64,000 bases of DNA, from NCBI RefSeq assembly GCF_041886205.1, contig NZ_CP169029.1; one strand, given 5' to 3'. This stretch comes from Escherichia coli. Lineage in GTDB: Bacteria > Pseudomonadota > Gammaproteobacteria > Enterobacterales > Enterobacteriaceae. Shown here piece by piece: positions 7,070 through 40,935 of this stretch (the first letter of the stretch is position 1; each line of letters opens with the position of its first letter). The position numbers and the translations under genes are program-made. The notes under the pieces were generated by a model, which did not search any database, was not told where the DNA came from, and saw only the letters and a list, made by a program, of their open reading frames with translations.

Positions 7070-7145
7070 TGGTGGGTCGTGCAGGATTCGAACCTGCGAC
7101 CAATTGATTAAAAGTCAACTGCTCTACCAACTGAGCTAACGACCC
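7070..7145 (-). tRNA. lysQ: tRNA-Lys (UUU)
   Basis: Reverse complement matches E. coli tRNA-Lys including anticodon loop (ttaaaag = cUUUUaa) and CCA end. Confidence 0.93.
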
Positions 7146-7277
7146 CTTGCGGGATTATGCTGCTTTAATCATTCAGGATGGTGGGTCGTGCAGGATGACT
7201 GGACTTCGTCTCGCCCTTCGGGCCGTTGCTAACGCAACGTTATCCTTCACGTTCTCTACCAGTAACCACCTTTAAAT

Positions 7278-7353
7278 TGGTGGGTCGTGCAGGATTCGAA
7301 CCTGCGACCAATTGATTAAAAGTCAACTGCTCTACCAACTGAGCTAACGACCC
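7278..7353 (-). tRNA. lysZ: tRNA-Lys (UUU)
   Basis: Identical tRNA-Lys copy. Confidence 0.93.
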
Positions 7354-7499
7354 ATATGGGTGTTACCTGAAAGATTTCTACTCGGAACCAATCTTTAAAA
7401 TTGGTGGCTCGTGCAGGATGACTCGCTTCGCTCGCCCTACGGGCCGTTGCTGGCGTAACGTTATCCTTCACGCTTAACATCTGAGTTTGATGTTAAAAC

Positions 7500-7575
7500 T
7501 GGTGGGTCGTGCAGGATTCGAACCTGCGACCAATTGATTAAAAGTCAACTGCTCTACCAACTGAGCTAACGACCC
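7500..7575 (-). tRNA. lysY: tRNA-Lys (UUU)
   Basis: Identical tRNA-Lys copy. Confidence 0.93.
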
Positions 7576-7578
7576 GAG

Positions 7579-7654
7579 TGGTGGGTGATGACGGGATCGA
7601 ACCGCCGACCCCCTCCTTGTAAGGGAGGTGCTCTCCCAGCTGAGCTAATCACCC
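7579..7654 (-). tRNA. valZ: tRNA-Val (UAC)
   Basis: Reverse complement matches E. coli tRNA-Val1 (anticodon region ccttgtaaggg) with CCA end. Confidence 0.92.
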
Positions 7655-7705
7655 GATACTGCGCTGGATACTACAAACTACTTCCACCGAACCCACCGTA
7701 ATTAG

Positions 7706-7781
7706 TGGTGGGTCGTGCAGGATTCGAACCTGCGACCAATTGATTAAAAGTCAACTGCTCTACCAACTGAGCTAACGACCC
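7706..7781 (-). tRNA. lysW: tRNA-Lys (UUU)
   Basis: Identical tRNA-Lys copy. Confidence 0.93.
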
Positions 7782-7783
7782 GG

Positions 7784-7859
7784 TGGTGGGTGATGACGGG
7801 ATCGAACCGCCGACCCCCTCCTTGTAAGGGAGGTGCTCTCCCAGCTGAGCTAATCACCC
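7784..7859 (-). tRNA. valT: tRNA-Val (UAC)
   Basis: Identical tRNA-Val copy. Confidence 0.92.
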
Positions 7860-7994
7860 AATACTACGCTGGATACTACAACTAACTATGTTAGTGGTGG
7901 GTCGTGCAGGATGACTCGACTTCGTCTCGCCCTTCGGGCCGTTGCTGATGCAACGTTATCCTTCACGTTTTACTACCGCTTCCACCTTAGCGAT

Positions 7995-8070
7995 TGGTGG
8001 GTCGTGCAGGATTCGAACCTGCGACCAATTGATTAAAAGTCAACTGCTCTACCAACTGAGCTAACGACCC
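7995..8070 (-). tRNA. lysT: tRNA-Lys (UUU)
   Basis: Identical tRNA-Lys copy; first gene of the operon on the minus strand. Confidence 0.93.
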
Positions 8071-8234: not shown

Positions 8235-9026
8235 TTACATCGCGTTCAGACGTTTTTGTGCCTGTTTAGCGCCATCAGTACCAGGGTATTTACTGATAAC
8301 CTGCTGGTATACGGCTTTCGCTTTTGCGGTGTCACCTTTGTCCTGCATGATGACGCCGACTTTAAACATCGCATCAGCAGCCTTTGGTGACTTCGGATAG
8401 TTTTTCACTACCGAAGCAAAATAGTACGCCGCATCATCTTTTTTACCCTTGTTGTAGTTTAACTGACCCAGCCAATAATTGGCGTTTGGCAGGTAAGTTG
8501 AATCAGGGTAATTTTTGATGAAATTCTGAAATGCCACCATTGCGTCATCCTGGCGGGATTTATCCTGCACCAGCGCAATAGCTGCATTGTAATCCGTGTT
8601 TGCATCGCCGCTTTTCACCGGCGCGCCAGCATTCGCAGTACCAGCATCAGCTGTCGGCGTCGTTGATGCCGCCGCACCGCTTTGATCGCTGCTGGTTGAT
8701 TGCGCCGCTGCACCACCGCTGCTGAGGCTGTCGATCTGCAACAGGATCTGCTTTTGCCGCTCCACGACCTGATTCAGTTGATACTGATTTTCCTGAATCT
8801 GACCACGCAGGGAATCAATATCGGATTGATTATCAGAAAGTTGTTGCTGGAGTTGGGTTAAAAGCTGGCTGTGAGCATTAGAAATACGCTCAAGTTGAGT
8901 GACGCGGTCTTCGACCGAGCCTGAGCCGACACTACTGATTGGTGCCTGAGCAAAAGCGGCCCAGGGGGCCGCTATACCAACCAGTAACGACAGACTCAAT
9001 AGTTGATGTCTGAAGTTACTGCTCAT
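8235..9026 (-). CDS. cpoB: cell division coordinator CpoB (YbgF), TPR periplasmic protein
   Basis: 263 aa, signal peptide, coiled-coil Q-rich region then TPR repeats; last gene of tol-pal cluster. Confidence 0.9.
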   Translation of the reverse strand: MSSNFRHQLLSLSLLVGIAAPWAAFAQAPISSVGSGSVEDRVTQLERISNAHSQLLTQLQQQLSDNQSDIDSLRGQIQENQYQLNQVVERQKQILLQIDSLSSGGAAAQSTSSDQSGAAASTTPTADAGTANAGAPVKSGDANTDYNAAIALVQDKSRQDDAMVAFQNFIKNYPDSTYLPNANYWLGQLNYNKGKKDDAAYYFASVVKNYPKSPKAADAMFKVGVIMQDKGDTAKAKAVYQQVISKYPGTDGAKQAQKRLNAM

Positions 9027-9035
9027 GCAATTCTC

Positions 9036-9581
<546 letters not shown>

Positions 9582-21822: not shown

Positions 21823-23268
21823 ATGGAACTTCGAAATAAGAAATTAACCCATGACGAATTCATGACCGAGCGGCAACAGGTACTGAAAACCTGGGAAACC
21901 GGCAAGGATGTTGAAAACTTTGAAGATGGCGTTAAATACCAACAAACCATCCCTGAGCATAAACGCTTCTCTCTTGCGCTGCTGAAAGCAGACAAGGAAG
22001 GTAAAACCCTTAGCCAACCGCGCGCAGGTGTGGCGCTGATGGACGAACACATCGAACTACTGAAAACACTACAAGAAGAGTGCGATCTGCTGCCAAGCAC
22101 CATCGATGCATATACCCGTCTGAATCGGTACGAAGAAGCGGCTGTAGGGATTAAAAAATCCATCGAAGCCGGAACCTCTAAACTGAACGGTTTACCGGTA
22201 GTTAACCACGGCGTCGCAGCTTGCCGTCGCCTCACCGAAACCCTGCAAAAACCGCTACAGATCCGCCACGGCACGCCAGATGCGCGTCTGCTGGCTGAAA
22301 TCTCGATGTCCAGCGGCTTTACCAGTTACGAAGGCGGCGGCATTTCCTACAACATTCCGTATGCCAAACGCGTAACGCTGGAAAAATCGATCCGCGACTG
22401 GCAGTACTGCGACCGTTTAATGGGGATGTACGAAGAACACGGGATCCGCATCAACCGCGAACCATTTGGCCCACTAACGGGTACGCTGATCCCGCCGTTT
22501 ATCTCGCACTCTATCGCCATAATCGAAGGATTGCTGGCACTGGAACAGGGTGTGAAATCTATCACCGTTGGTTATGGCCAGGTCGGCAGCCTGACGCAGG
22601 ATGTTGCGGCGATCCAGTCTCTGCGTGAACTTGCACACGAATATTTTCAGAGCTATGGCTATACCGACTATGAATTGAGTACCGTGTTTCACCAGTGGAT
22701 GGGCGGCTTTCCGGAAGACGAATCGAAAGCGTTCGCTATTATCTCCTGGGGCGCAGCCGTCGCGGGGATGTCTGGTGCCACCAAAGTCATCACCAAAAGT
22801 CCGCACGAAGCCTGGGGCATCCCGACTGCCGCTGCCAACATTCAAGGGCTAAAAGCCTCCCGCCAGATGCTCAACATGGTCAATGAGCAGAAATTCCCGC
22901 CGTGCCCTGCGGTTGAACTGGAAATTGAACTGATTAAGAGCGAGGTTCGCGCGGTACTGAATAAAGTGTTTGAACTGGGTAATGGTGATATTGCGCGCGG
23001 TACGGTGCTGGCATTTGAAGCGGGCGTACTGGATGTGCCGTTTGCGCCAGCCGCCTGCAACGCGGGCAAAATTCTTCCGGTCCGTGACAACACCGGCGCG
23101 ATACGCGTACTGGAAGCCGGAGCCGTTCCATTGCCAAAAGATATTCTCGACCTCCACCACGATTACGTTGCGGAACGCGCACGCTTTGAAGGACGCCAAC
23201 CGACATTCCAGATGGTTGTAGATGACATCAATGCTGTATCCCACAGTAAATTAATAGGAAGACCATAA
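21823..23268 (+). CDS. glmE: glutamate mutase epsilon subunit (methylaspartate mutase E chain)
   Basis: 481 aa; long blocks resemble remembered clostridial GlmE (PRAGVALMDEHIELL, REPFGPLTGTL, VFHQWMGGFPEDESKAF). Confidence 0.9.
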   Translation: MELRNKKLTHDEFMTERQQVLKTWETGKDVENFEDGVKYQQTIPEHKRFSLALLKADKEGKTLSQPRAGVALMDEHIELLKTLQEECDLLPSTIDAYTRLNRYEEAAVGIKKSIEAGTSKLNGLPVVNHGVAACRRLTETLQKPLQIRHGTPDARLLAEISMSSGFTSYEGGGISYNIPYAKRVTLEKSIRDWQYCDRLMGMYEEHGIRINREPFGPLTGTLIPPFISHSIAIIEGLLALEQGVKSITVGYGQVGSLTQDVAAIQSLRELAHEYFQSYGYTDYELSTVFHQWMGGFPEDESKAFAIISWGAAVAGMSGATKVITKSPHEAWGIPTAAANIQGLKASRQMLNMVNEQKFPPCPAVELEIELIKSEVRAVLNKVFELGNGDIARGTVLAFEAGVLDVPFAPAACNAGKILPVRDNTGAIRVLEAGAVPLPKDILDLHHDYVAERARFEGRQPTFQMVVDDINAVSHSKLIGRP

Positions 23269-24509
23269 TGAAAATAAAACAGGCTCTGTTCACCGCTGGC
23301 TACTCCTCATTCTATTTCGATGACCAGCAGGCGATAAAAAACGGAGCGGGTCATGACGGCTTTTTTTATACCGGGGAGCCGGTAACACAGGGGTTTAACG
23401 CCGTTCGTCAGGCCGGGGAGTGCGTATCGGTACAGTTGATTCTGGAAAACGGCGCGGTCGCCGTAGGTGACTGTGCTACCGTACAGTATTCCGGGGCAGG
23501 TGGTCGCGATCCACTGTTCCTCGCAGAGCACTTTATTCCGTTCCTCAACGATCATATCAAGCCATTACTGGTAGGCCGCGATGTGGATGCTTTCCTGCCG
23601 AATGCCCGTTTCTTCGACAAATTGCGTATTGACGGCAACTTGCTGCATACCGCCGTGCGCTACGGATTATCACAGGCGCTGCTTGATGCTACCGCGCTGG
23701 CAACCGGCCGTCTGAAAACTGAAGTGGTCTGTGATGAATGGCAGTTGCCACGCGTGGCGGAATCCATTCCATTATTTGGTCAGAGCGGCGACGATCGATA
23801 TATCGCCGTCGATAAGATGATCCTTAAAGGCATCGACGTGCTGCCCCATGCGCTGATTAATAACGTCGAGGAGAAGCTGGGCTTTAAAGGTGAAAAACTG
23901 CGCGAATATGTCCGCTGGCTGTCGGATCGCATTCTGAGCAAGCGCACCAGCGCACGCTACCACCCTACCCTGCACATCGATGTATACGGCACTATCGGTC
24001 TGATCTTCGATATGGATCCGCTTCGCTGTGCGCAATACATCGCCAGCCTGGAAACAGAAGCGCAAGGCCTGCCGCTCTACATTGAAGGGCCGGTCGATGC
24101 CGGTAACAAGCCCGATCAAATTCGCCTGCTGACCGCGATTACCAAAGAGCTGACGCGCCTCGGTTCTGGCGTGAAAATTGTGGCCGATGAATGGTGTAAC
24201 ACTTACCAGGATATTGTTGATTTCACCGATGCCGCCAGTTGCCACATGGTGCAAATCAAAACCCCGGATCTGGGCAGTATTCACAACATCGTCGATGCGG
24301 TTCTTTACTGCAACAGCCACAGCATGGAAGCATACCAGGGCGGCACCTGCAATGAAACTGATGTCAGTGCCCGCACCTGTGTCCACGTCGCCCTAGCCGC
24401 TCGCCCTATGCGTATGCTGGTAAAACCAGGGATGGGCTTTGACGAAGGCCTCGATATCGTCTTCAACGAAATGAATCGTACTATCGCGCTGTTGCAGGCT
24501 AAGGATTAA
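23268..24509 (+). CDS. mal: 3-methylaspartate ammonia-lyase (beta-methylaspartase)
   Basis: 413 aa enolase-superfamily protein; motifs GAGHDGF, VQYSGAGGRDPLF, ADEWCNT, HMVQIKTPDLG match methylaspartase; start overlaps glmE stop. Confidence 0.9.
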   Translation: MKIKQALFTAGYSSFYFDDQQAIKNGAGHDGFFYTGEPVTQGFNAVRQAGECVSVQLILENGAVAVGDCATVQYSGAGGRDPLFLAEHFIPFLNDHIKPLLVGRDVDAFLPNARFFDKLRIDGNLLHTAVRYGLSQALLDATALATGRLKTEVVCDEWQLPRVAESIPLFGQSGDDRYIAVDKMILKGIDVLPHALINNVEEKLGFKGEKLREYVRWLSDRILSKRTSARYHPTLHIDVYGTIGLIFDMDPLRCAQYIASLETEAQGLPLYIEGPVDAGNKPDQIRLLTAITKELTRLGSGVKIVADEWCNTYQDIVDFTDAASCHMVQIKTPDLGSIHNIVDAVLYCNSHSMEAYQGGTCNETDVSARTCVHVALAARPMRMLVKPGMGFDEGLDIVFNEMNRTIALLQAKD

Positions 24510-24512
24510 CAA

Positions 24513-25883
24513 ATGGCTCGTTCTTTTAAAGTCTTATCGCCAACGGCAATCCTCGGGTATGGATTCCCGGAAGAGAGCTTCCGCAAAGCGATGGCAGAAT
24601 CGCCTGATCTGATCGCCGTTGATGCAGGCTCTTCCGATCCTGGCCCCCACTACCTCGGAGCGGGCAAACCGTTTACCGATCGCGCAGGGGTCAAGCGCGA
24701 TCTGCGCTATATGATCACCGCAGGCGTGCAAAATAATATACCGGTGGTGATCGGAACGGCCGGCGGTTCTGGTGCCGCACCACACCTGGAGTGGTGCCGA
24801 GAAATAATTCATGAGATTGCCCGGGAAGAGCTCCTCTCGTTCTCGATGGCACTGATCCCGGCAGACGTTGACAAAGCCATCGTCCACCAGGCGCTGGATA
24901 ACGGCAAAATCACGGCGCTGGATTTTGTCCCGCCGTTAACCCACGACGCGATTGACGAAAGTACGTATATCGTCGCGCAAATGGGCATCGAACCCTTCCA
25001 GCGGGCGCTGAAAGAAGGCGCGCAAGTGGTGCTGGGCGGGCGCGCTTACGACCCGGCCTGCTTTGCTGCGCTCCCGATCATGCAAGGCTTTGATGAAGGT
25101 CTGGCGCTGCATTGTGGGAAAATCCTTGAATGCGCGGCAATCGCCGCAACGCCCGGCTCAGGCTCTGACTGTGCGATGGGCATCATTGATGACAACGGCT
25201 TTACGCTGAAGACATTTAATCCGAAGCGTAAATTTACCGAAACGTCAGCAGCTGCACACACACTGTATGAGAAATCCGATCCCTACTTCCTGCCAGGACC
25301 TGGCGGCGTGTTGAACCTGAAAGGCTGCACATTTAAAGCAGTCAATGACGGCGAAGTGTACGTCAGCGGTTCCAAGCATGAAGAAACGCCGTATGCCCTG
25401 AAACTGGAAGGTGCGCGACGGGTGGGCTTCCGCTGTCTGACCATCGCCGGAACGCGCGACCCGATCATGATCGCCGGGATCGATAAAATCATCGATGAAG
25501 TCAAAACCAGCGTTTCGCGTAACCTGTCGCTAGACGATGACAGCATTCGCATCAATTTCCACCTGTACGGCAAAAACGGGGTGATGGGCGACCATGAACC
25601 GATGCAAACTGCCGGGCATGAGCTGGGGATTGTCCTTGATGTAGTTGCACCGACCCAGGAAATTGCCAATAGTGTTTGCTCGCTGGTGCGCTCTACCATG
25701 CTGCACTACGGCTATGAAAACCGCATCGCTACCGCAGGCAACCTGGCGTTCCCGTTCTCTCCTTCTGATATCCAGGGCGGGCCGGTATACGAATTTTCCA
25801 TATATCACCTGATTGAAGCCAACGACGCTCTGCGTTTTGATTTCCATATTGAACAGGTGACGCCAGAAGGAGTTCAGGCATGA
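24513..25883 (+). CDS. conserved protein of unknown function (possibly DUF1446/AtuA-like family)
   Basis: 456 aa ORF 3 bp after mal; soluble; family assignment is from memory of motif pattern only and is tentative. Confidence 0.7.
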   Translation: MARSFKVLSPTAILGYGFPEESFRKAMAESPDLIAVDAGSSDPGPHYLGAGKPFTDRAGVKRDLRYMITAGVQNNIPVVIGTAGGSGAAPHLEWCREIIHEIAREELLSFSMALIPADVDKAIVHQALDNGKITALDFVPPLTHDAIDESTYIVAQMGIEPFQRALKEGAQVVLGGRAYDPACFAALPIMQGFDEGLALHCGKILECAAIAATPGSGSDCAMGIIDDNGFTLKTFNPKRKFTETSAAAHTLYEKSDPYFLPGPGGVLNLKGCTFKAVNDGEVYVSGSKHEETPYALKLEGARRVGFRCLTIAGTRDPIMIAGIDKIIDEVKTSVSRNLSLDDDSIRINFHLYGKNGVMGDHEPMQTAGHELGIVLDVVAPTQEIANSVCSLVRSTMLHYGYENRIATAGNLAFPFSPSDIQGGPVYEFSIYHLIEANDALRFDFHIEQVTPEGVQA

Positions 25884-26197
25884 AACAGTCAATTGTCTCA
25901 CTGGCGCAAGTCATTCGTTCGAAAAATGCCGGACCTTACGAACTGGTTTTAGATATTTTATTTAAAACTAAAGAAAACTATGAGCGAGTTAAATCATCAG
26001 GGCAATTAACCCCAGAACTGATTGCGCGCTTATATCATGTTGAACCTGACTTTATTCATCGTATTGTCTGGTTTGATCCTTCTAACGCAGTAAAAATCGT
26101 CATGCCACGAGATATTATCTCCGGGAATGTAGGTGACAATGATGTCTATGGTGCACAGCAACATGCACCTTTATTAAATATGAGTTTCGATTTGTAA
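25880..26197 (+). CDS. small conserved protein of unknown function (possibly DUF4387-like partner)
   Basis: 105 aa ORF whose start overlaps the previous stop (ATGA), i.e. translationally coupled. Confidence 0.65.
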   Translation: MKQSIVSLAQVIRSKNAGPYELVLDILFKTKENYERVKSSGQLTPELIARLYHVEPDFIHRIVWFDPSNAVKIVMPRDIISGNVGDNDVYGAQQHAPLLNMSFDL

Positions 26198-26280
26198 AAA
26201 TCCGAACACTTTTAGCCAACTGACATCCCGTCACTTATTGCAGTTCAACACTTCAGCTATTTGTAAGGTTGTAATAGCAG

Positions 26281-26313
26281 GTAGATGCCTGAATCTCTAT
26301 TCAGGCATCTACT
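26281..26313 (+). promoter_or_regulatory. perfect 13-bp inverted repeat with 6-nt loop (gtagatgcctgaa-tctcta-ttcaggcatctac) in the intergenic gap before the transporter gene
   Basis: Perfect palindrome between the small ORF and the transporter; only a weak T-rich tract downstream, so it may be an attenuator/processing site or a protein-binding site rather than a strong terminator. Confidence 0.45.
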
Positions 26314-26357
26314 TCTCCTGATTCTGATTTATCGCCGTGCACCTGATGGAGGAAAAA

Positions 26358-27638
26358 ATGAAGAAAATAAGTTTAACCACGATGATTCTTTTGGCGCTGG
26401 TACTTGGAATGATTATCGGCGTAGTGCTCAATAACACTGCTTCACCGGAAACAGCAAAACTCTATGCGCAAGAAATATCGATATTCACGACGATTTTCTT
26501 ACGACTGATAAAAATGATTATCGCTCCGCTAGTGGTTTCTACCCTGGTGGTAGGTATTGCTAAAATGGGCGATGCCAAAGCCCTTGGCCGTATTTTTTCT
26601 AAAACACTCTTTTTATTTATTTGCGCCTCATTGCTATCAATTGCCTTAGGCTTGATAACGGTAAATTTCTTCATGCCAGGTACAGGAATTAATTTTGTTG
26701 CACACGGTGCCGAAACCACTGGAGTGGTCGCGTCAGAACCCTTCACGCTAAAAGTATTTATTTCGCATGCTTTCCCCACCAGCATTGTCGATGCCATGGC
26801 GCACAATGAAATTTTGCAAATCGTGGTGTTCTCAATTTTCCTCGGCTGTAGCCTGACGGCGATTGGCGAGAAAGGCAGCGCCATCGTTCACGCCTTAGAT
26901 TCGCTGGCACATGCCATGTTAAAGCTCACTGGCTACGTCATGCTCTTCGCTCCCCTGACCGTATTCGCCGCTATTTCAGCATTGATTGCTGAACGAGGAC
27001 TGGCAGTTATGGTGAGCGCCGGGATCTTTATGGGTGAATTTTATTTCACCATGTTATTACTTTGGGTGCTGCTTATCGGTCTGGCCATCGTTTATGTCGG
27101 CCCCTGCATCAGACGCCTGACCCGCGCCCTTTCGGAACCCGCCCTGCTGGCATTTACCACATCCAGTTCTGAAGCGGCTTTTCCGGGAACGCTTGAAAAA
27201 CTGGAGCAATTTGGCGTTTCCCCCAAAATTGCCAGCTTTGTCTTACCCATTGGCTACTCATTTAATCTCGTTGGATCAATGGCCTACTGCTCCTTCGCCA
27301 CCGTTTTCATCGCCCAGGCCTGCAATATCCATTTATCCATCGGTGAGCAAATCACCATGCTGTTGATCCTGATGTTGACCTCGAAAGGAATGGCTGGCGT
27401 ACCACGCGCCTCAATGGTGGTTATCGCCGCCACGCTCAACCAGTTCAATATTCCGGAAGCGGGGCTGATCTTGCTGATGGGCGTTGATCCGTTCCTTGAT
27501 ATGGGGCGTTCCGCGACAAACGTCATGAGCAACGCAATGGGCGCTGCGATGGTGAGTCGGTGGGAAGGCGAACATTTCGGCGAGGGCTGTCGGGGTAAAG
27601 CATTAAAATCCAATGAATCGAACGTTGCTCTGCCCTGA
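26358..27638 (+). CDS. dicarboxylate/amino acid:cation symporter (DAACS family, GltP/DctA-like)
   Basis: About 426 aa multi-pass membrane protein with GltP-like motifs (KMIIAPLVVSTLVVGIAKMGD, TSKGMAGVP); start chosen at ATG 26358 after GGAGGA. Confidence 0.88.
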   Translation: MKKISLTTMILLALVLGMIIGVVLNNTASPETAKLYAQEISIFTTIFLRLIKMIIAPLVVSTLVVGIAKMGDAKALGRIFSKTLFLFICASLLSIALGLITVNFFMPGTGINFVAHGAETTGVVASEPFTLKVFISHAFPTSIVDAMAHNEILQIVVFSIFLGCSLTAIGEKGSAIVHALDSLAHAMLKLTGYVMLFAPLTVFAAISALIAERGLAVMVSAGIFMGEFYFTMLLLWVLLIGLAIVYVGPCIRRLTRALSEPALLAFTTSSSEAAFPGTLEKLEQFGVSPKIASFVLPIGYSFNLVGSMAYCSFATVFIAQACNIHLSIGEQITMLLILMLTSKGMAGVPRASMVVIAATLNQFNIPEAGLILLMGVDPFLDMGRSATNVMSNAMGAAMVSRWEGEHFGEGCRGKALKSNESNVALP

Positions 27639-27745
27639 GGGGGATCTTAAGCAATCAGAAGCCAATGACTACGTATTTTTATAAGCCGGATCATGAAGTT
27701 AGACGGCAATTAAGTAACACTAACGTTTAAGGTGAAAAGTGAAAT

Positions 27746-29398
27746 ATGTCCAAACCTTTTATCTGGCAAGAACCGTTTCTACAAAATAAAGACGGTACAG
27801 AATATACATTAATTAGCGATCAACATATTACAGTAACGGAATTAGACGGCGAAGAAGTGATAAAAATCGCTCCTGAAGCATTAACGCTGCTTGCCCGGCA
27901 GGCATTTTATGAAGCCTCTTTTTTCTTACGTTCCGCTCATTTGCAACAGGTCGCCAGCATTCTTAACGATCCGCAGGCCAGTAGTAATGATAAATACGTT
28001 GCGTTGCAGTTATTACGTAATGCTGAAGTCTCAGCAAAAGGGGTATTACCCAACTGTCAGGATACCGGCACCGCAACTATTGTTGCCAGTAAAGGGCAAC
28101 AGATATGGACCGGAGGTAACGACGCCGAAGCCTTAAGCAAAGGCATTTACACCACTTTTCAGGAAAATAATCTGCGCTTTTCACAAAATGCGCCGCTGGA
28201 TATGTATACCGAAGTCAATACGCAAACCAATCTCCCGGCGCAGATTGATATCAGCGCTGTCGCTGGTAATGAGTACCATTTTCTCTGTGTTAATAAAGGG
28301 GGCGGCTCTGCCAATAAAGCCGCGCTTTATCAGGAAACCAAATCCTTATTGCAACCAGAAAAACTGACCGCATTTTTAATCGAAAAAATGAAATCGCTGG
28401 GCACCGCTGCCTGCCCGTCTTATCACATCGCCTTTGTCGTCGGAGGGCTTTCAGCCGATCAAACCTTAAAAGTTGCCAAGCTGGCTTCTACGAAATATTT
28501 CGACAATTTGCCCACCAGCGGAAACGAGCAGGGACAAGCATTCCGTGATATTGAGCTGGAAAAAGCGTTGCTCGAGGCCAGTCAGCAATTTGGTATTGGT
28601 GCGCAATTTGGGGGTAAATATTTCGCTCATGATATTCGCGTCATTCGTCTGCCGCGTCACGGTGGCTCTTGCCCGATAGCTATGGCGCTCTCCTGTTCAG
28701 CCGATCGCAATATCAAAGCAAAAATTAACAAACACGGTATCTGGCTGGAAAAACTCGAACACAATCCGGGGCAATATATTCCAGCCTCACTGCGGGAAGA
28801 AAATCACGCGCAACATGTACAACTGGATCTAAACCGTCCGTTGCGTGACGTGATGCAGGATCTCGCCAGATTACCGGTAGGCACCCGCGTGTCGTTAAGT
28901 GGTCCCATCGTAGTGGCGCGCGATATCGCCCACGCCAAAATAAAAGCGCGGCTGGATAGCGGCGAACCGATGCCGGATTACCTGAAGCATCATATTGTCT
29001 ATTACGCTGGCCCGGCGAAAACACCGGAGAACATGGCCTGCGGTTCACTGGGTCCAACCACGGGCGGTCGAATGGACGGTTATGTCGATACCTTCCAGGC
29101 GGCTGGCGGCAGTCTGGTGATGTTATCGAAAGGTAACCGCAGCCAGCAGGTCACCGATGCCTGTCACAAACATGGCGGCTTCAATCTGGGAAGTATTGGC
29201 GGTGCAGCTGCGTTACTGGCGCAAGAATATGTCAAAAGTCTGCGTTGCCTGGAATACCCGGAGCTGGGTATGGAAGCGGTGTGGATGATGGAAGTGGAAA
29301 ATCTGCCCGCATTCATCCTGGTAGATGATAAAGGCAATAATTTCTTTAGTCAGTTTGAGCAGCAACACCGCTGCGCCAGTTGCCCTGCGGGACATTAA
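27746..29398 (+). CDS. fumD: class I fumarate hydratase family protein (FumA/FumB paralogue; likely mesaconase/fumarase)
   Basis: 550 aa, the size of Fe-S class I fumarases with Cys ligands; located with glutamate mutase and methylaspartase, as remembered for FumD of E. coli O157:H7. Confidence 0.8.
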
Positions 29399-29407
29399 GG
29401 AAAATGA

Positions 29408-30010
29408 ATGGAAGCGCGAATTTCAACTGAACGGCATGTGCAGCGCCAACAGAAATTGAAGGAACAGGTCGATACGCGCGTCGCGGCGGCGATAGAGAAA
29501 AAAGGGATCTTGATTGTTTTCACCGGCAACGGCAAAGGGAAATCCACTGCCGCGTTTGGTACTGTGACGCGCGCGGTGGGTCATGGCAAAACGGTGGGGG
29601 TTGCGCAGTACATCAAGGGGCAATGGGACAACGGCGAATACAACCTTCTCCAGCCGCTGGGGGTTGAGTTTCATATTATGGGAACCGGTTTTACCTGGGA
29701 GACACAGAACCGGCAAGCGGATATCGACGCGGCGAAAGAGGTCTGGTCGGAAAGCAAACGGATGCTGGCTGACAAGCGTTACGACTTAGTGGTGCTTGAT
29801 GAGCTGACCTATATGCTGGCTTACCATTATCTGGATACCGAAGAAGTGATCGCTTCTCTGCAAAACCGCCCGGCACAACAAAGTGTCATTGTCACCGGAC
29901 GCGGTTGCCACAGTCAGATATTAAAAATGGCGGATACGGTAAGCGAAATCCGTCCCGTCAAACATGCTTTTGATAACGGCATTCAGGCCCAGCCGGGTAT
30001 CGACTGGTAA
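29408..30010 (+). CDS. cob(I)alamin adenosyltransferase (CobA/BtuR family) paralogue
   Basis: 200 aa with P-loop GNGKGKSTAAFG and strong similarity along its length to remembered E. coli BtuR; last gene of the operon. Confidence 0.88.
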   Translation: MEARISTERHVQRQQKLKEQVDTRVAAAIEKKGILIVFTGNGKGKSTAAFGTVTRAVGHGKTVGVAQYIKGQWDNGEYNLLQPLGVEFHIMGTGFTWETQNRQADIDAAKEVWSESKRMLADKRYDLVVLDELTYMLAYHYLDTEEVIASLQNRPAQQSVIVTGRGCHSQILKMADTVSEIRPVKHAFDNGIQAQPGIDW

Positions 30011-30043
30011 TAACTGCGCCTGGCATCCCGCCAGGCGCAGGTT

Positions 30044-30949
30044 TTACATCTCCTGCGGTACGACCGATTTCACCAGCAACCATTCACGAAATTGCTGCAA
30101 GTGCGGTGAGTCAGACTTCTCTTCCTGCCACGTCATAATAAAACGATTACCGGTACGAATAGGCACATCACAGGGGATCACCATATCGCCACTATCCAAA
30201 TCATGTTGAATAGCGAACCGTGGTAACAGCGCCACGCCGAGATTAGAGCGCACGGCGGCAATCAGCATTGAAAGCAAATCGAAACGTGGTCCGTTGTTGA
30301 CCAGCGGACTGCTAACGCCAGATAAAGCAAACCACTCTTCCCAGCCAGTAATACGGGTGCTTTGATGCAGAAGTGGTAACTCAGTAAGCAGTTCTGCCAC
30401 TGACAGTTTTTGATCGGACATTGCAAGCAAACTGCCACTGCATACCGGCAAAATCTCCTCTTCAAAGAGATATTCTACTTCCGCCCAGGGCGCGCAAAAA
30501 TTTTCGCGCATAATGACAGCATCGTACTCCCGATTAAGAAAATCGCCGTTATTAGCTAAAGAATGAATATTAACAATAATATCGGGATGTAACTTTGTGA
30601 ATTCATGTAAATTTGGGATTAACCAGTGGGTACTAAAAGTAGGATTAACGGCAAGTTCAATAACCTGAACCGTAGGCTGCCAGGTCATAATGGTATTGGT
30701 ATCGCGTTCCAGCTTATTTAATGTTTCTTTTACTATCCCCAGGTAATACTTCCCTGCATCATTAAGAAAAATGCGTTTTTTAGAGTGTGAAAATAATGGA
30801 GTATGTAAAAATTCCTCCAGCGCACTTACTTGTCTGAATACAGCACTTTGGGTTAACGCTAACTCCTCTGCCGCTCTGGTATAACTTTCATGACGTGCGA
30901 CGACCTCAAAAGTCACCAGCAGTTCCGTTTTAGGTATTTTCCCTCGCAT
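30044..30949 (-). CDS. LysR-family transcriptional regulator
   Basis: 301 aa; N-terminal HTH (ESYTRAAEELALTQSAVFRQVSALEEFL) and LysR substrate-binding domain; convergent with the catabolic operon, divergent from the RtcB-like gene. Confidence 0.88.
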   Translation of the reverse strand: MRGKIPKTELLVTFEVVARHESYTRAAEELALTQSAVFRQVSALEEFLHTPLFSHSKKRIFLNDAGKYYLGIVKETLNKLERDTNTIMTWQPTVQVIELAVNPTFSTHWLIPNLHEFTKLHPDIIVNIHSLANNGDFLNREYDAVIMRENFCAPWAEVEYLFEEEILPVCSGSLLAMSDQKLSVAELLTELPLLHQSTRITGWEEWFALSGVSSPLVNNGPRFDLLSMLIAAVRSNLGVALLPRFAIQHDLDSGDMVIPCDVPIRTGNRFIMTWQEEKSDSPHLQQFREWLLVKSVVPQEM

Positions 30950-31539
30950 AATGCCTTCCGTGAAAAAAATAACAATTCAAAAATTATTTTATAAAAAACA
31001 GTAGCACTAATGAATATCATAATTCAAATAAACAAACCAGTCAGCTATATGTCCAACCAGAAAAATAAAGTGACAATAATCCTAAAACAGTAATTTCACC
31101 TCAGTTATCCACATGCAATACTTTAAAAATATTATTGCAAGAATATTATTCATATACATGAATATACTCTAAATAAGTCGAGTTGCAGGAAGGGAACAAA
31201 TAATGAATCTCCAGAAGATTACATAAGTAAGTGACCTGGGTGAGCGAACATCGATGCAGCACATGCAACTTGAATTATGACAAGTATACAATGATAAATT
31301 TAGATACCCTATGTTATATATTATCTATGTCCGGTTAAATTGAATGAGTCATGGCCTTAAAAGACTTCGCAAAAGATTATTTCTCTTTAACAATAAGCCA
31401 GATTTACCACTTGTAAAAATTGCTATCGCCACATACACTACGCGCGTTTTCTTTCCCTTTTGCTGGCTGCTGACCGGAAAGACAAAATTACCCTCGCAAT
31501 ACAGGGGGGTGTTTAACGTCTATATTTCAGGATAGCGTT

Positions 31540-32937
31540 ATGCATCATCTTTCAAGGTTTGATAAAGCCTTTCTGCGCAAAGGGATCCAACTTTCCCGCG
31601 CCAACAATATTGTTTCATTATCTCGTCCATCAGGTGCCAGTGCCCGCGTACTGTTGCCGGACGAACTGCCACTGGAAGAAAAAGCAGTGACACAACTGCT
31701 TGATTTTGCAGAAGTGAAGCTACCAGACCATCCAGGTTATGTACGCCAGACGTGCGCGACGCCAGATTTTCACCCCGGCAATGGCGTCCCCGTTGGCGCG
31801 GTGGTGGCCTCAACGCCGGATTTAGTCATTCCCGCCGCCATCGGCACCGATATTTCTTGCGGCATGCGGCTGCTAACGACTGGATTAACACTTGAACAAG
31901 CCGAAGCGCATAAAGACGTCATCACTCAGCGGTTAACGCAAGTGCTACTGCAAAATGAGCGCGATGTTCCGTTATCCGCACAGGCGTTCACCGCGCTTTT
32001 TGATGGCGGACCGGCAGATTGCGTGTCGACCTTGCCATCAGCAGGTCTCTGGACACGCATGAATATCCCCCGAATGGTACAAGAGATTGACCGCTGCATT
32101 GGGCTTAACGAGCATAACAGTCACTCGCGTTATGCCCCACCCGCCCTGCTGGCAACGGACCGCGCATTACTCCGCGACCCTTGTCTGGGTACGCCGGGTT
32201 CAGGTAATCATTTTATTGAACTTCAGGTAGTTGATAGCGTGATCGATCGCCATGTAGCCTGGCAACAAGGGCTGAAAACGGGCGATATCGTGGTGATGAT
32301 CCACAGTGGATCGCGAGATGTTGGCTTTTACGTCGGAAGACGCTGGATGGATCGCGCCCGTGCTGAATGGCCCATCGGACATAAACATCCACAAAGCGGG
32401 TTATATGGTCTGGCAGGCGGACTGGCGGAGGAATATCTACAAGCGATGGGAATGGCGGCGCGTTACGCATGGTTAAATCGCGTGACCATTGCGGAAATGG
32501 TTCGCGTATGTTTTGCCGATTTATTTCATCAGGATGATTCACATCTGGTGGTGGATGTGCCGCATAACATCATCCTTCGCGAACATGAAATGAATATTCA
32601 TCGCAAAGGTGCAACACCGGCACACGCGGGCGCTCTGGCATTAATCCCCGGTTCAATGGGCGATTATACGTGGCTTGCGGTAGGTTGCGGCAACCCGGAG
32701 TGGTTGTGGTCATGCAGTCACGGAGCAGGACGCAGCCAGCGTCGGCAGGCCATGCGCTCACGCGCGACTGAAGAGTCAACGCTGCCGTGGCAATGCGTCA
32801 CATTGCGTGAAGAACGACGTCTTGAAGAAGCGCCAGCTGCTTATAAAGATATTGCTCCGGTTATCGAAGCCCAACAAGAAGCTGGATTGATTCAGCCTGC
32901 GGTCAGATTTCGACCGTGGTTAACGTTTAAGGGGTAA
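31540..32937 (+). CDS. RtcB-family RNA ligase paralogue with ~55 aa N-terminal extension
   Basis: 465 aa; RtcB motifs DFHPGNG, IPAAIGTDISCGMR, GSGNHFIELQ, HSGSRDVG, IPGSMGDY, SCSHGAGR, AYKDI line up with remembered E. coli RtcB. Confidence 0.85.
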   Translation: MHHLSRFDKAFLRKGIQLSRANNIVSLSRPSGASARVLLPDELPLEEKAVTQLLDFAEVKLPDHPGYVRQTCATPDFHPGNGVPVGAVVASTPDLVIPAAIGTDISCGMRLLTTGLTLEQAEAHKDVITQRLTQVLLQNERDVPLSAQAFTALFDGGPADCVSTLPSAGLWTRMNIPRMVQEIDRCIGLNEHNSHSRYAPPALLATDRALLRDPCLGTPGSGNHFIELQVVDSVIDRHVAWQQGLKTGDIVVMIHSGSRDVGFYVGRRWMDRARAEWPIGHKHPQSGLYGLAGGLAEEYLQAMGMAARYAWLNRVTIAEMVRVCFADLFHQDDSHLVVDVPHNIILREHEMNIHRKGATPAHAGALALIPGSMGDYTWLAVGCGNPEWLWSCSHGAGRSQRRQAMRSRATEESTLPWQCVTLREERRLEEAPAAYKDIAPVIEAQQEAGLIQPAVRFRPWLTFKG

Positions 32938-37817: not shown

Positions 37818-38540
37818 ATGGGACACAAGCCCTTATACCGGCAGATTGCCGATCGCATTCGTGAGCAAATTGCGCGTGGGGAGCTTAAACCTGGCGATGC
37901 GTTACCCACTGAATCAGCACTACAAAGAGAGTTTGGCGTCAGCCGGGTTACGGTGCGTCAGGCTTTGCGCCAGTTAGTCGAGCAACAGATCCTCGAAAGC
38001 ATTCAGGGCAGCGGGACTTACGTCAAAGAAGAGCGGGTCAATTACGATATTTTTCAGTTAACCAGTTTTGATGAAAAACTGTCGGACCGTCACGTCGATA
38101 CACACAGTGAAGTCCTGATATTTGAAGTGATTCCGGCTGACGATTTTCTTCAGCAACAGCTACAAATCATCGCGCAGGATCGTGTGTGGCATGTGAAGCG
38201 CGTGCGCTATCGCAAGCAAAAGCCAATGGCGCTGGAAGAAACCTGGATGCCGCTTGCGTTGTTCCCGGATCTCACCTGGCAGGTCATGGAAAATTCGAAA
38301 TATCACTTTATTGAAGAAGTGAAGAAAATGGTTATCGATCGTAGCGAACAGGAAATCATTCCTCTGATGCCAACCGAAGAGATGAGCCGTCTGCTTAATA
38401 TCAGCCAGACTAAGCCGATTCTTGAAAAAGTATCGCGGGGATATTTAATTGATGGTCGGGTGTTTGAATATAGCCGCAACGCTTTTAATACCGATGACTA
38501 TAAATTTACCCTGATAGCGCAGCGAAAATCATCGCGATAA
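37818..38540 (+). CDS. mngR: GntR-family transcriptional repressor of mngAB
   Basis: 240 aa; GntR HTH with UTRA domain; divergent from mngA. Confidence 0.9.
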   Translation: MGHKPLYRQIADRIREQIARGELKPGDALPTESALQREFGVSRVTVRQALRQLVEQQILESIQGSGTYVKEERVNYDIFQLTSFDEKLSDRHVDTHSEVLIFEVIPADDFLQQQLQIIAQDRVWHVKRVRYRKQKPMALEETWMPLALFPDLTWQVMENSKYHFIEEVKKMVIDRSEQEIIPLMPTEEMSRLLNISQTKPILEKVSRGYLIDGRVFEYSRNAFNTDDYKFTLIAQRKSSR

Positions 38541-38543
38541 GCA

Positions 38544-38643
38544 CAAAAAAGGCCATCATACGATGGCCAACCATGTCGAAACCGACAGCCCTTCGCCATT
38601 CCTGTAGAGGGAAGCGGCGAGGGCTATTTCTTATTACAAGTAT
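38544..38643 (-). ncRNA. sdhX: 3'-UTR-derived sRNA SdhX (RybD) ending in bidirectional terminator hairpin (38551-38568)
   Basis: Region directly after the sucD stop on the minus strand ending in ggccatc-gtat-gatggcc plus U tract; placement from remembered literature, exact 5' end not determinable here. Confidence 0.5.
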
Positions 38644-39513
38644 TTATTTCAGAACAGTTTTCAGTGCTTCACCGATATCCGCCAGGCTGCGAACGGTTTT
38701 CACGCCTGCGGCTTCCAGAGCAGCGAATTTCTCATCCGCAGTCCCTTTACCACCGGCAATGATGGCACCCGCGTGGCCCATACGTTTGCCTTTCGGCGCA
38801 GTCACACCAGCGATGTAACCTACAACTGGCTTGGTAACGTGCTCTTTGATGTACGCAGCAGCTTCTTCTTCTGCGCTACCGCCGATCTCACCGATCATCA
38901 CGATCGCTTCGGTCTGCGGATCTTTTTCGAACATTTCGAGGATGTCGATGAAGTTAGCGCCAGGGATCGGGTCACCGCCGATACCGACACAGGTCGACTG
39001 ACCGAAACCGTAATCCGTGGTCTGTTTAACCGCTTCATAGGTCAGTGTACCGGAACGGGAAACGATACCCACTTTACCCGGTTTGTGAATGTGACCCGGC
39101 TGGATACCGATTTTGCATTCACCCGGAGTGATAACGCCCGGGCAGTTCGGGCCGATCATACGAACGCCGGCTTCGTCCAGTTTCACTTTCACAGTCAGCA
39201 TATCCAGCGTCGGGATGCCTTCAGTGATGGTGATAATCAGTTTGATGCCTGCATCAATAGCTTCCAGAATGGAGTCTTTGCAGAACGGTGCTGGTACGTA
39301 GATAACAGAAGCGGTAGCACCAGTAGCAGCAACAGCTTCACGCACGGTGTTGAACACCGGCAGGCCGAGGTGGGTAGTACCGCCTTTACCTGGGGTTACG
39401 CCGCCAACCATTTTAGTGCCGTATGCAATGGCCTGTTCTGAGTGGAAAGTCCCCTGGCTACCGGTAAAGCCCTGGCAGATAACCTTGGTGTTTTTATCAA
39501 TTAAAATGGACAT
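38644..39513 (-). CDS. sucD: succinyl-CoA synthetase alpha subunit
   Basis: 289 aa; matches SucD. Confidence 0.95.
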
Positions 39514-40761: not shown

Positions 40762-40935
40762 CCCGTAGGCCTGATAAGACGCGTTAAGCGTCGCATCAGG
40801 CATCGCTTGTCGGCTGCGGCGCGAGCGCCTTATCCGACCTACATTGGTGCTCCCCGTAGGCCTGATAAGACGCGTAAGCGTCGCATCAGGCTTCAATTGC
40901 CGGAGAAGGCGATAATGCCTTATCCGGTCTATAGT
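40762..40935. repeat. REP/BIME cluster between sucB and sucC
   Basis: Tandem inverted REP units (gtaggcctgataagacgcg...cgcatcaggc repeated). Confidence 0.75.

Follow-up and report, generated by a model that had tools for sequence, protein, structure and literature searches.

The window analysed here, a stretch of DNA of 64,000 nt, is part of an Escherichia coli chromosome. A 201-nt probe spanning the region of interest matches 5,425 of the 5,426 complete E. coli genomes, and over 40 kb it is collinear with strain LHM10-1, the two being 99.5-99.8% identical. The region of interest lies between two convergent genes, both identified from the list of open reading frames and from the annotations of K-12 and LHM10-1. 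On the minus strand, sucD (38644..39513, 289 aa, stop codon at 38644..38646) is the last gene of the sdhCDAB-sucABCD operon, the gene order of which is confirmed in collinear LHM10-1. On the plus strand, mngR (37818..38540, stop codon at 38538..38540) runs towards it and ends 10 nt from a terminator hairpin; mngR provides context and lies outside the small RNA discussed below. The segment between them, 38543..38643 on the minus strand, has the same orientation as sucD, begins immediately downstream of its stop codon and occupies the end of the operon. Further away, the sucB-sucC spacer (40768..40853) contains a REP-type element matching Rfam naRNA4 with 64 bits and is about 91 nt longer than in LHM10-1, the surplus being probably an extra REP unit. 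Rfam models also recognise a CpoB/ybgF thermometer (8997..9135, 142 bits) and a Lys/Val-type tRNA cluster with interspersed RtT repeats (7073..8070).

The sucD 3' UTR is composed of five parts. Past the TAA of sucD, the minus strand reads AUACUUGUAAUAAGAAAU, hairpin 1, GUCGGUUUCGACAUGGUU, GGCCAUC-GUAU-GAUGGCC and UUUUUUGU, that is, an A/U-rich leader (nt 1-18), an interrupted stem-loop of 39 nt (nt 19-57; 38587..38625, -22 kcal/mol), a single-stranded linker, a terminator hairpin and a tail. The 99-nt segment folds at -39.9 kcal/mol, with a z-score of -5.2 relative to shuffled sequences, and none of the 200 shuffles folds as well. The terminator hairpin (38551..38568, minus strand) consists of 7 bp, five of them G-C, with a free energy of -11.5 kcal/mol, and is followed by a tail of six U residues (38545..38550). 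As a pattern alone, such a terminator is not rarer than chance, since one was found in a 2.2-kb region versus 2.2 expected in shuffled sequences. Its stem, however, is supported by covariation. In an alignment of 20 sequences, representing about a dozen named genera and two unclassified MAGs, 100% of the cells are paired and compensatory changes occur at three of six pairs, and no slid control came close. The RNA end itself has been mapped in K-12, where Term-seq recorded a strong 3' end at 765148 (+) under each of the three growth conditions (Adams et al. 2021, PMC7815308, supplementary file 1); two rows of the table show read counts of 19,842 and 34,704. The flanking sequence printed there puts this end at the final U of U6, which corresponds to nt 99 of SdhX and to position 38545 of the window. 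The segment of 38544..38643 with a ggccatc/gatggcc hairpin and a U tract, which had been delineated in the initial annotation, agrees within 1 nt with the K-12-based span of 38543..38643.

In K-12 MG1655, the equivalent interval is occupied by the curated ncRNA gene sdhX (b4764, 765050..765150), which extends from the first base after sucD to 2 nt before the mngR stop codon. The window contains the full-length form of about 101 nt (38543..38643, minus strand; z-score of its minimum free energy, -5.2), which aligns with K-12 sdhX without gaps and is identical to it at 99 of 101 positions. The sole difference is at nt 4-5 (38639..38640, minus strand), where the window has CU and K-12 has UC. These two bases lie in the unstructured A/U-rich 5' leader, adjoining the presumed 5' processing site of the long form and outside every validated pairing segment. 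The 201-nt haplotype seen in the window is uncommon, with exact copies in only eight of the 5,426 complete E. coli genomes; the sdhX element itself is covered to at least 80% in 5,424 of them. In a spread sample of these matches, nt 6-101 or 6-99 of sdhX are mostly 100% identical. The window strain differs from K-12 by an accessory island of about 13 kb beyond mngAB, which is missing in K-12 and leaves the small RNA untouched. The island (~19968..32937, beyond mngB), annotated from collinear LHM10-1, encodes RtcB, a LysR-type regulator, cobO, a class I fumarate hydratase, a dicarboxylate symporter, AtuA-like and DUF4387 proteins, methylaspartate ammonia-lyase and methylaspartate (glutamate) mutase subunits. 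From this gene content, the island may be read as a glutamate/mesaconate pathway.

The key functional element of SdhX is the conserved seed UUCGACAUGGU, with the core CGACAU, for which pairing with the ackA start codon region was shown by compensatory mutation (Miyakoshi et al. 2019, PMC6393394). The seed, left unverified in the initial annotation, is unchanged in the window, where it corresponds to nt 64-74 of SdhX (38570..38580, minus strand). It is unpaired or weakly paired in both the minimum free energy and the centroid folds and is located directly upstream of the terminator. We compared the window copy with K-12 target genes by a search for contiguous complementarity. Nucleotides 64-73 are complementary to positions -2..+8 of K-12 ackA (CCAUGUCGAG, covering the AUG and a UCG codon) over 10 bp, including one G.U pair. 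The ackA gene of this strain is outside the window; since 5,424 of 5,426 E. coli genomes match the region -50..+50 of ackA at 99% identity or better, the same target site is assumed here. A second segment, GUUUCGACAU (nt 62-71; 38573..38582, minus strand), overlaps the seed, includes G62 and forms 10 pairs with positions -22..-13 of K-12 fdoG, with G62 facing C-13 as in the published compensatory mutants. A third, the E. coli-specific segment GCUUCCCUCUACAG (nt 29-42; 38602..38615, minus strand), includes C34 and forms 14 contiguous pairs with positions -20..-7 of K-12 katG. In E. coli, G62 has been reported to pair with fdoG C-13 and the C34 region with the katG Shine-Dalgarno sequence, the latter on the basis of C34G compensatory mutagenesis (PMC6393394), and SdhX-ackA and SdhX-katG chimeras were recovered by Hfq CLASH (PMC7213987). 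Complementarities of the window copy to ackA, fdoG and katG thus reproduce the published pairings and mutant positions.

Two other results of the target analysis were discarded. RNAduplex predictions for full-length SdhX and ackA yielded meaningless long duplexes, because this approach ignores intramolecular structure. Nucleotides 2-11 (38633..38642) can form 10 contiguous pairs, two of them G.U, with positions -15..-6 of ackA, around the Shine-Dalgarno sequence. About 0.3 such runs are expected by chance, and the 38-nt form of SdhX suffices for repression, so this complementarity is probably a coincidence. The UC/CU polymorphism leaves it intact, since both alleles pair with GG.

Taken together, the orthologous position, the 99/101 identity, the unchanged published seed and the K-12 3' end indicate that 38543..38643 on the minus strand is almost certainly sdhX, the source of the Hfq-dependent sRNA SdhX (formerly RybD), an operon-derived 3'-UTR sRNA that regulates ackA. 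The initial annotation had proposed a probable SdhX sRNA in the sucD 3' UTR and suggested alignment with annotated K-12 sdhX as a check; the alignment matches directly after sucD, and a stable RNA 3' end is documented in K-12 at an identical sequence. The sequence-only call was accurate to 1-2 nt. In the window itself, the identification is carried by position, near-identity, intact seed, terminator and target complementarities, conservation across genera and covariation. SdhX has been characterised since 2018-2019, and the RNA in the window is this already known sRNA with a trivial two-base variant. From the near-identity and the literature on K-12 and Salmonella, we infer that the strain expresses and uses SdhX as K-12 does.

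Published work on the identical K-12 sequence or on Salmonella is the source for the mapped 3' end, the processing by RNase E, the dependence on Hfq and the repression of targets. In Salmonella, both SdhX species vanish in an rne-ts strain (PMC6393394). Neither a transcription start site nor a conserved promoter precedes the SdhX 5' ends (PMC6393394), and these observations argue against separate transcription of SdhX from a promoter located within the distal part of sucD, in the manner of MicL in cutC. Inside sucD, the minus strand does carry one weak sigma-70-like match (39089..39062, 9/12). Yet it is the sole promoter-like match on that strand and lies some 420 nt ahead of the 5' end of the sRNA, and promoter-like matches as a whole occur at chance level (three found versus 2.6 expected), making a dedicated promoter extremely unlikely. 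The segment could alternatively encode a small protein, given that the mechanical list of open reading frames includes one of 33 aa (38498..38599, minus strand) with its AUG in hairpin 1. This frame, however, crosses the terminator and the mapped 3' end at 38545, so that no stop codon for it would be transcribed; the AUG is enclosed in the stem of hairpin 1, and the region upstream of the seed is not conserved between genera. We consider the probability of a coding function to be virtually nil.

Processing of the operon mRNA, the favoured origin of SdhX, is expected to yield two forms. The ~10-kb sdhCDAB-sucABCD transcript would end at the intrinsic terminator formed by the hairpin at 38551..38568 and the U6 tail. 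RNase E would cut this mRNA near the sucD stop codon, giving the ~101-nt form, and a second cut around G62/U63 would give a form of ~38 nt. The latter, equivalent to SdhX2 and predicted from published data (PMC6393394, PMC9438474), would comprise the seed, the terminator and U6 (38545..38582, minus strand). G62 sits at the SdhX2 processing site (PMC6393394). Judging from the motif, the short form should start at about G62/U63, a likely RNase E site, as GG↓UUU (nt 61-65) fits RN↓WUU. Both forms would retain the single-stranded seed just upstream of the terminator. Hfq is expected to bind the terminator and the U tail, and the seed to pair across the ackA start codon, blocking translation of acetate kinase and sparing pta. 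Consistent with this scheme, Hfq dependence and target repression have been reported for SdhX (PMC6393394), with AckA being lowered and Pta not (PMC6393394, PMC9438474). Expression of the TCA-cycle operon would thereby be coupled to acetate and acetyl-phosphate metabolism. The additional E. coli segments would extend regulation to fdoG, through G62 together with the seed, and to the Shine-Dalgarno sequence of katG, through the loop of hairpin 1. The physiology of E. coli SdhX was described by De Mets et al. (2019), as cited in PMC6393394 and PMC9438474.

Conservation of the sucD 3' UTR was assessed in relatives of SucD, with one genome per species, the best 80 loci being kept and the sequence past each sucD stop codon inspected. 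Among the 17 loci with the most similar SucD, 14, all of Enterobacteriaceae type, carry the exact 11-nt seed. They belong to E. albertii, Mangrovibacter, Phytobacter, Pluralibacter, Superficieibacter, two Citrobacter, Kluyvera, Cedecea, three Enterobacter isolates and two MAGs. These loci differ in the spacing between the stop codon and the seed, which is 27 to 64 nt, and their upstream hairpins have unrelated sequences. Hairpin 1 of E. albertii carries a compensatory double change, C28-G47 to U28-A47, which supports this stem. In Serratia, Dickeya, Rahnella and Hafnia the seed is reduced to a TCGACAT(G) core; two Serratia, Dickeya and two Rahnella contain TCGACAUG, and Hafnia has TCGACAUA. 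The GG of the seed is replaced by UU in Serratia, Dickeya and Rahnella and by AU in Serratia plymuthica. Among the 80 best sucD loci, no seed was found in Erwiniaceae, Photorhabdus, Arsenophonus, Budvicia, an Enterobacter-labelled locus or any non-Enterobacterales gammaproteobacterium. In the inspected loci of Erwiniaceae, Arsenophonus and Budvicia, the sucD 3' UTR is essentially a bare terminator. All 20 aligned sequences share T-GACAT, and the C following the first T, which completes the CGACAU core, is nearly invariant. These independent genomes, compared at the sequence level, bear out the published view of a 3' UTR that evolves fast except for its seed and U tail. The Enterobacter-labelled locus just mentioned, from Enterobacter sp. 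BIGb0383 (L015, 2368..2470), has a two-hairpin sucD 3' UTR that lacks the SdhX seed, and Yersinia artesiana (L043, 2377..2450) keeps only GUUCGACAC, followed by a hairpin with no clear U tract. Both may represent independent losses or decay of SdhX.

The initial annotation described the hairpin as shared with convergent mngR and its U tract as serving that gene as well. The hairpin does lie between the two convergent stop codons, 10 nt from that of mngR, but the U tract is present on the sucD strand only, and the second part of the description is therefore not upheld. UUUUUUGUGCUU follows the hairpin on the minus strand; on the plus strand A6 precedes it and AACCAUGUCGAA follows, the mngR strand past the hairpin thus reading AACCAUGU rather than a U tract. 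A consensus terminator scan called the site on the minus strand only. Between K-12 positions 765000 and 765199, the only curated Term-seq 3' end on either strand is the sucD-sense end at 765148 (+) (PMC7815308). No mngR-sense 3' end is present in the K-12 Term-seq tables for LB or M63 glucose (PMC7815308), conditions in which mngR expression may be too weak, and we found no specific report in the literature of sucD/mngR as a mapped bidirectional terminator.

Moreover, SdhX and mngR are not always neighbours. In E. coli O157:H7 F7386 (L084, 2996..3662), SdhX is kept and mngR is not adjacent; instead, a LysR-family gene lies about 560 bp downstream, followed by cobO and a class I fumarase. E. 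albertii also has SdhX, with a different sequence downstream and a neighbour other than mngR. In about 630 of the 5,426 genomes, coverage of the 201-nt probe, which reaches into mngR, falls below 80%. A rival reading of the locus is that the hairpin is chiefly a bidirectional sucD/mngR terminator and that the segment, as a purely structural 3' UTR, does not act in trans. Besides the placement of the hairpin, this reading can draw on a report that hairpins between convergent E. coli genes terminate in both directions without canonical features, via polymerase collisions (bioRxiv 10.1101/2022.10.23.513370). It is nevertheless very unlikely. The strand asymmetry of the U tract, of the scan and of the mapped ends is against it, as is the occurrence of the same SdhX sequence in O157:H7 and E. 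albertii without mngR as a neighbour. A terminator role would also leave unexplained the invariant, single-stranded 11-nt seed upstream of the stem, and trans-regulation by SdhX has been demonstrated experimentally, including the loss of ackA regulation upon seed mutation (PMC6393394). Thus, SdhX remains the preferred reading, and use of the terminator hairpin by mngR is not supported by the sequence features considered here. More generally, a hairpin alone is insufficient ground for proposing a shared terminator at convergent gene pairs.

A more plausible intrinsic stop for mngR than the terminator hairpin would be hairpin 1 (38587..38625). Read on the plus strand, it has a predicted free energy of -23.4 kcal/mol and is followed by AUUUCUUAUUACAAGUAUUUAUUU. 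If mngR ended after hairpin 1, its 3' UTR would be antisense to nearly all of SdhX. In strains with mngR beside sucD, the two transcription units might then overlap as an antisense pair, with mngR transcription reading through the terminator to hairpin 1, an arrangement that we regard as very unlikely. Transcription in the opposite direction may also extend into the neighbouring gene. The table of bicyclomycin-sensitive Term-seq ends (PMC7815308) includes a Rho-dependent 3' end at K-12 position 765604 (+), equivalent to ~38089 (-) of the window, antisense inside mngR. Read as the product of read-through at the sdhX terminator, this end implies some sdh-suc transcription antisense into mngR. 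If the overlap were true, SdhX could be titrated or destabilised when mngR is expressed, or mngR could be dampened when sdh-suc is strongly transcribed; either effect would provide a lineage-specific link of mannosylglycerate use to acetate and TCA control.

SdhX is poorly represented in annotation resources. Neither SdhX nor RybD was found as a family in Rfam 15, with the whole window searched at the gathering threshold and 38400..38800 at E-values up to 10. Matches of isrD and MicA at the terminator are far below threshold and were dismissed as chance. In the sampled PGAP-annotated RefSeq records of E. coli, no feature underlies the sdhX match. With neither an Rfam family nor a PGAP feature, SdhX is unannotated outside the curated K-12 record. 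Most E. coli genome records therefore do not show it, and it has to be recognised by its position and seed.

The window copy and K-12 SdhX share the locus, seed, hairpin 1, terminator, U6, G62, C34 and complementarity to ackA, fdoG and katG. SdhX1 and SdhX2 of Salmonella Typhimurium (PMC6393394) are also derived from the 3' UTR, processed by RNase E and dependent on Hfq, and have the same seed core, terminator architecture and conserved ackA target. By contrast, the long form of Salmonella SdhX is 87 nt, lacks the katG-pairing region and has a U in place of E. coli G62 (PMC6393394), in accordance with its targeting of fumB and yfbV rather than fdoG or katG. In these respects the window copy is of the E. 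coli type and not of the Salmonella type. SdhX further resembles CpxQ, GlnZ/STnc800, NarS, MalH and SroC, in which an operon terminator likewise serves as the Hfq module, RNase E releases the RNA and a short seed is located upstream, whereas the parental mRNAs, seeds and targets differ. Among such 3'-UTR-derived Hfq-dependent sRNAs, SdhX is unusual in how little is conserved besides the seed and the U tail.
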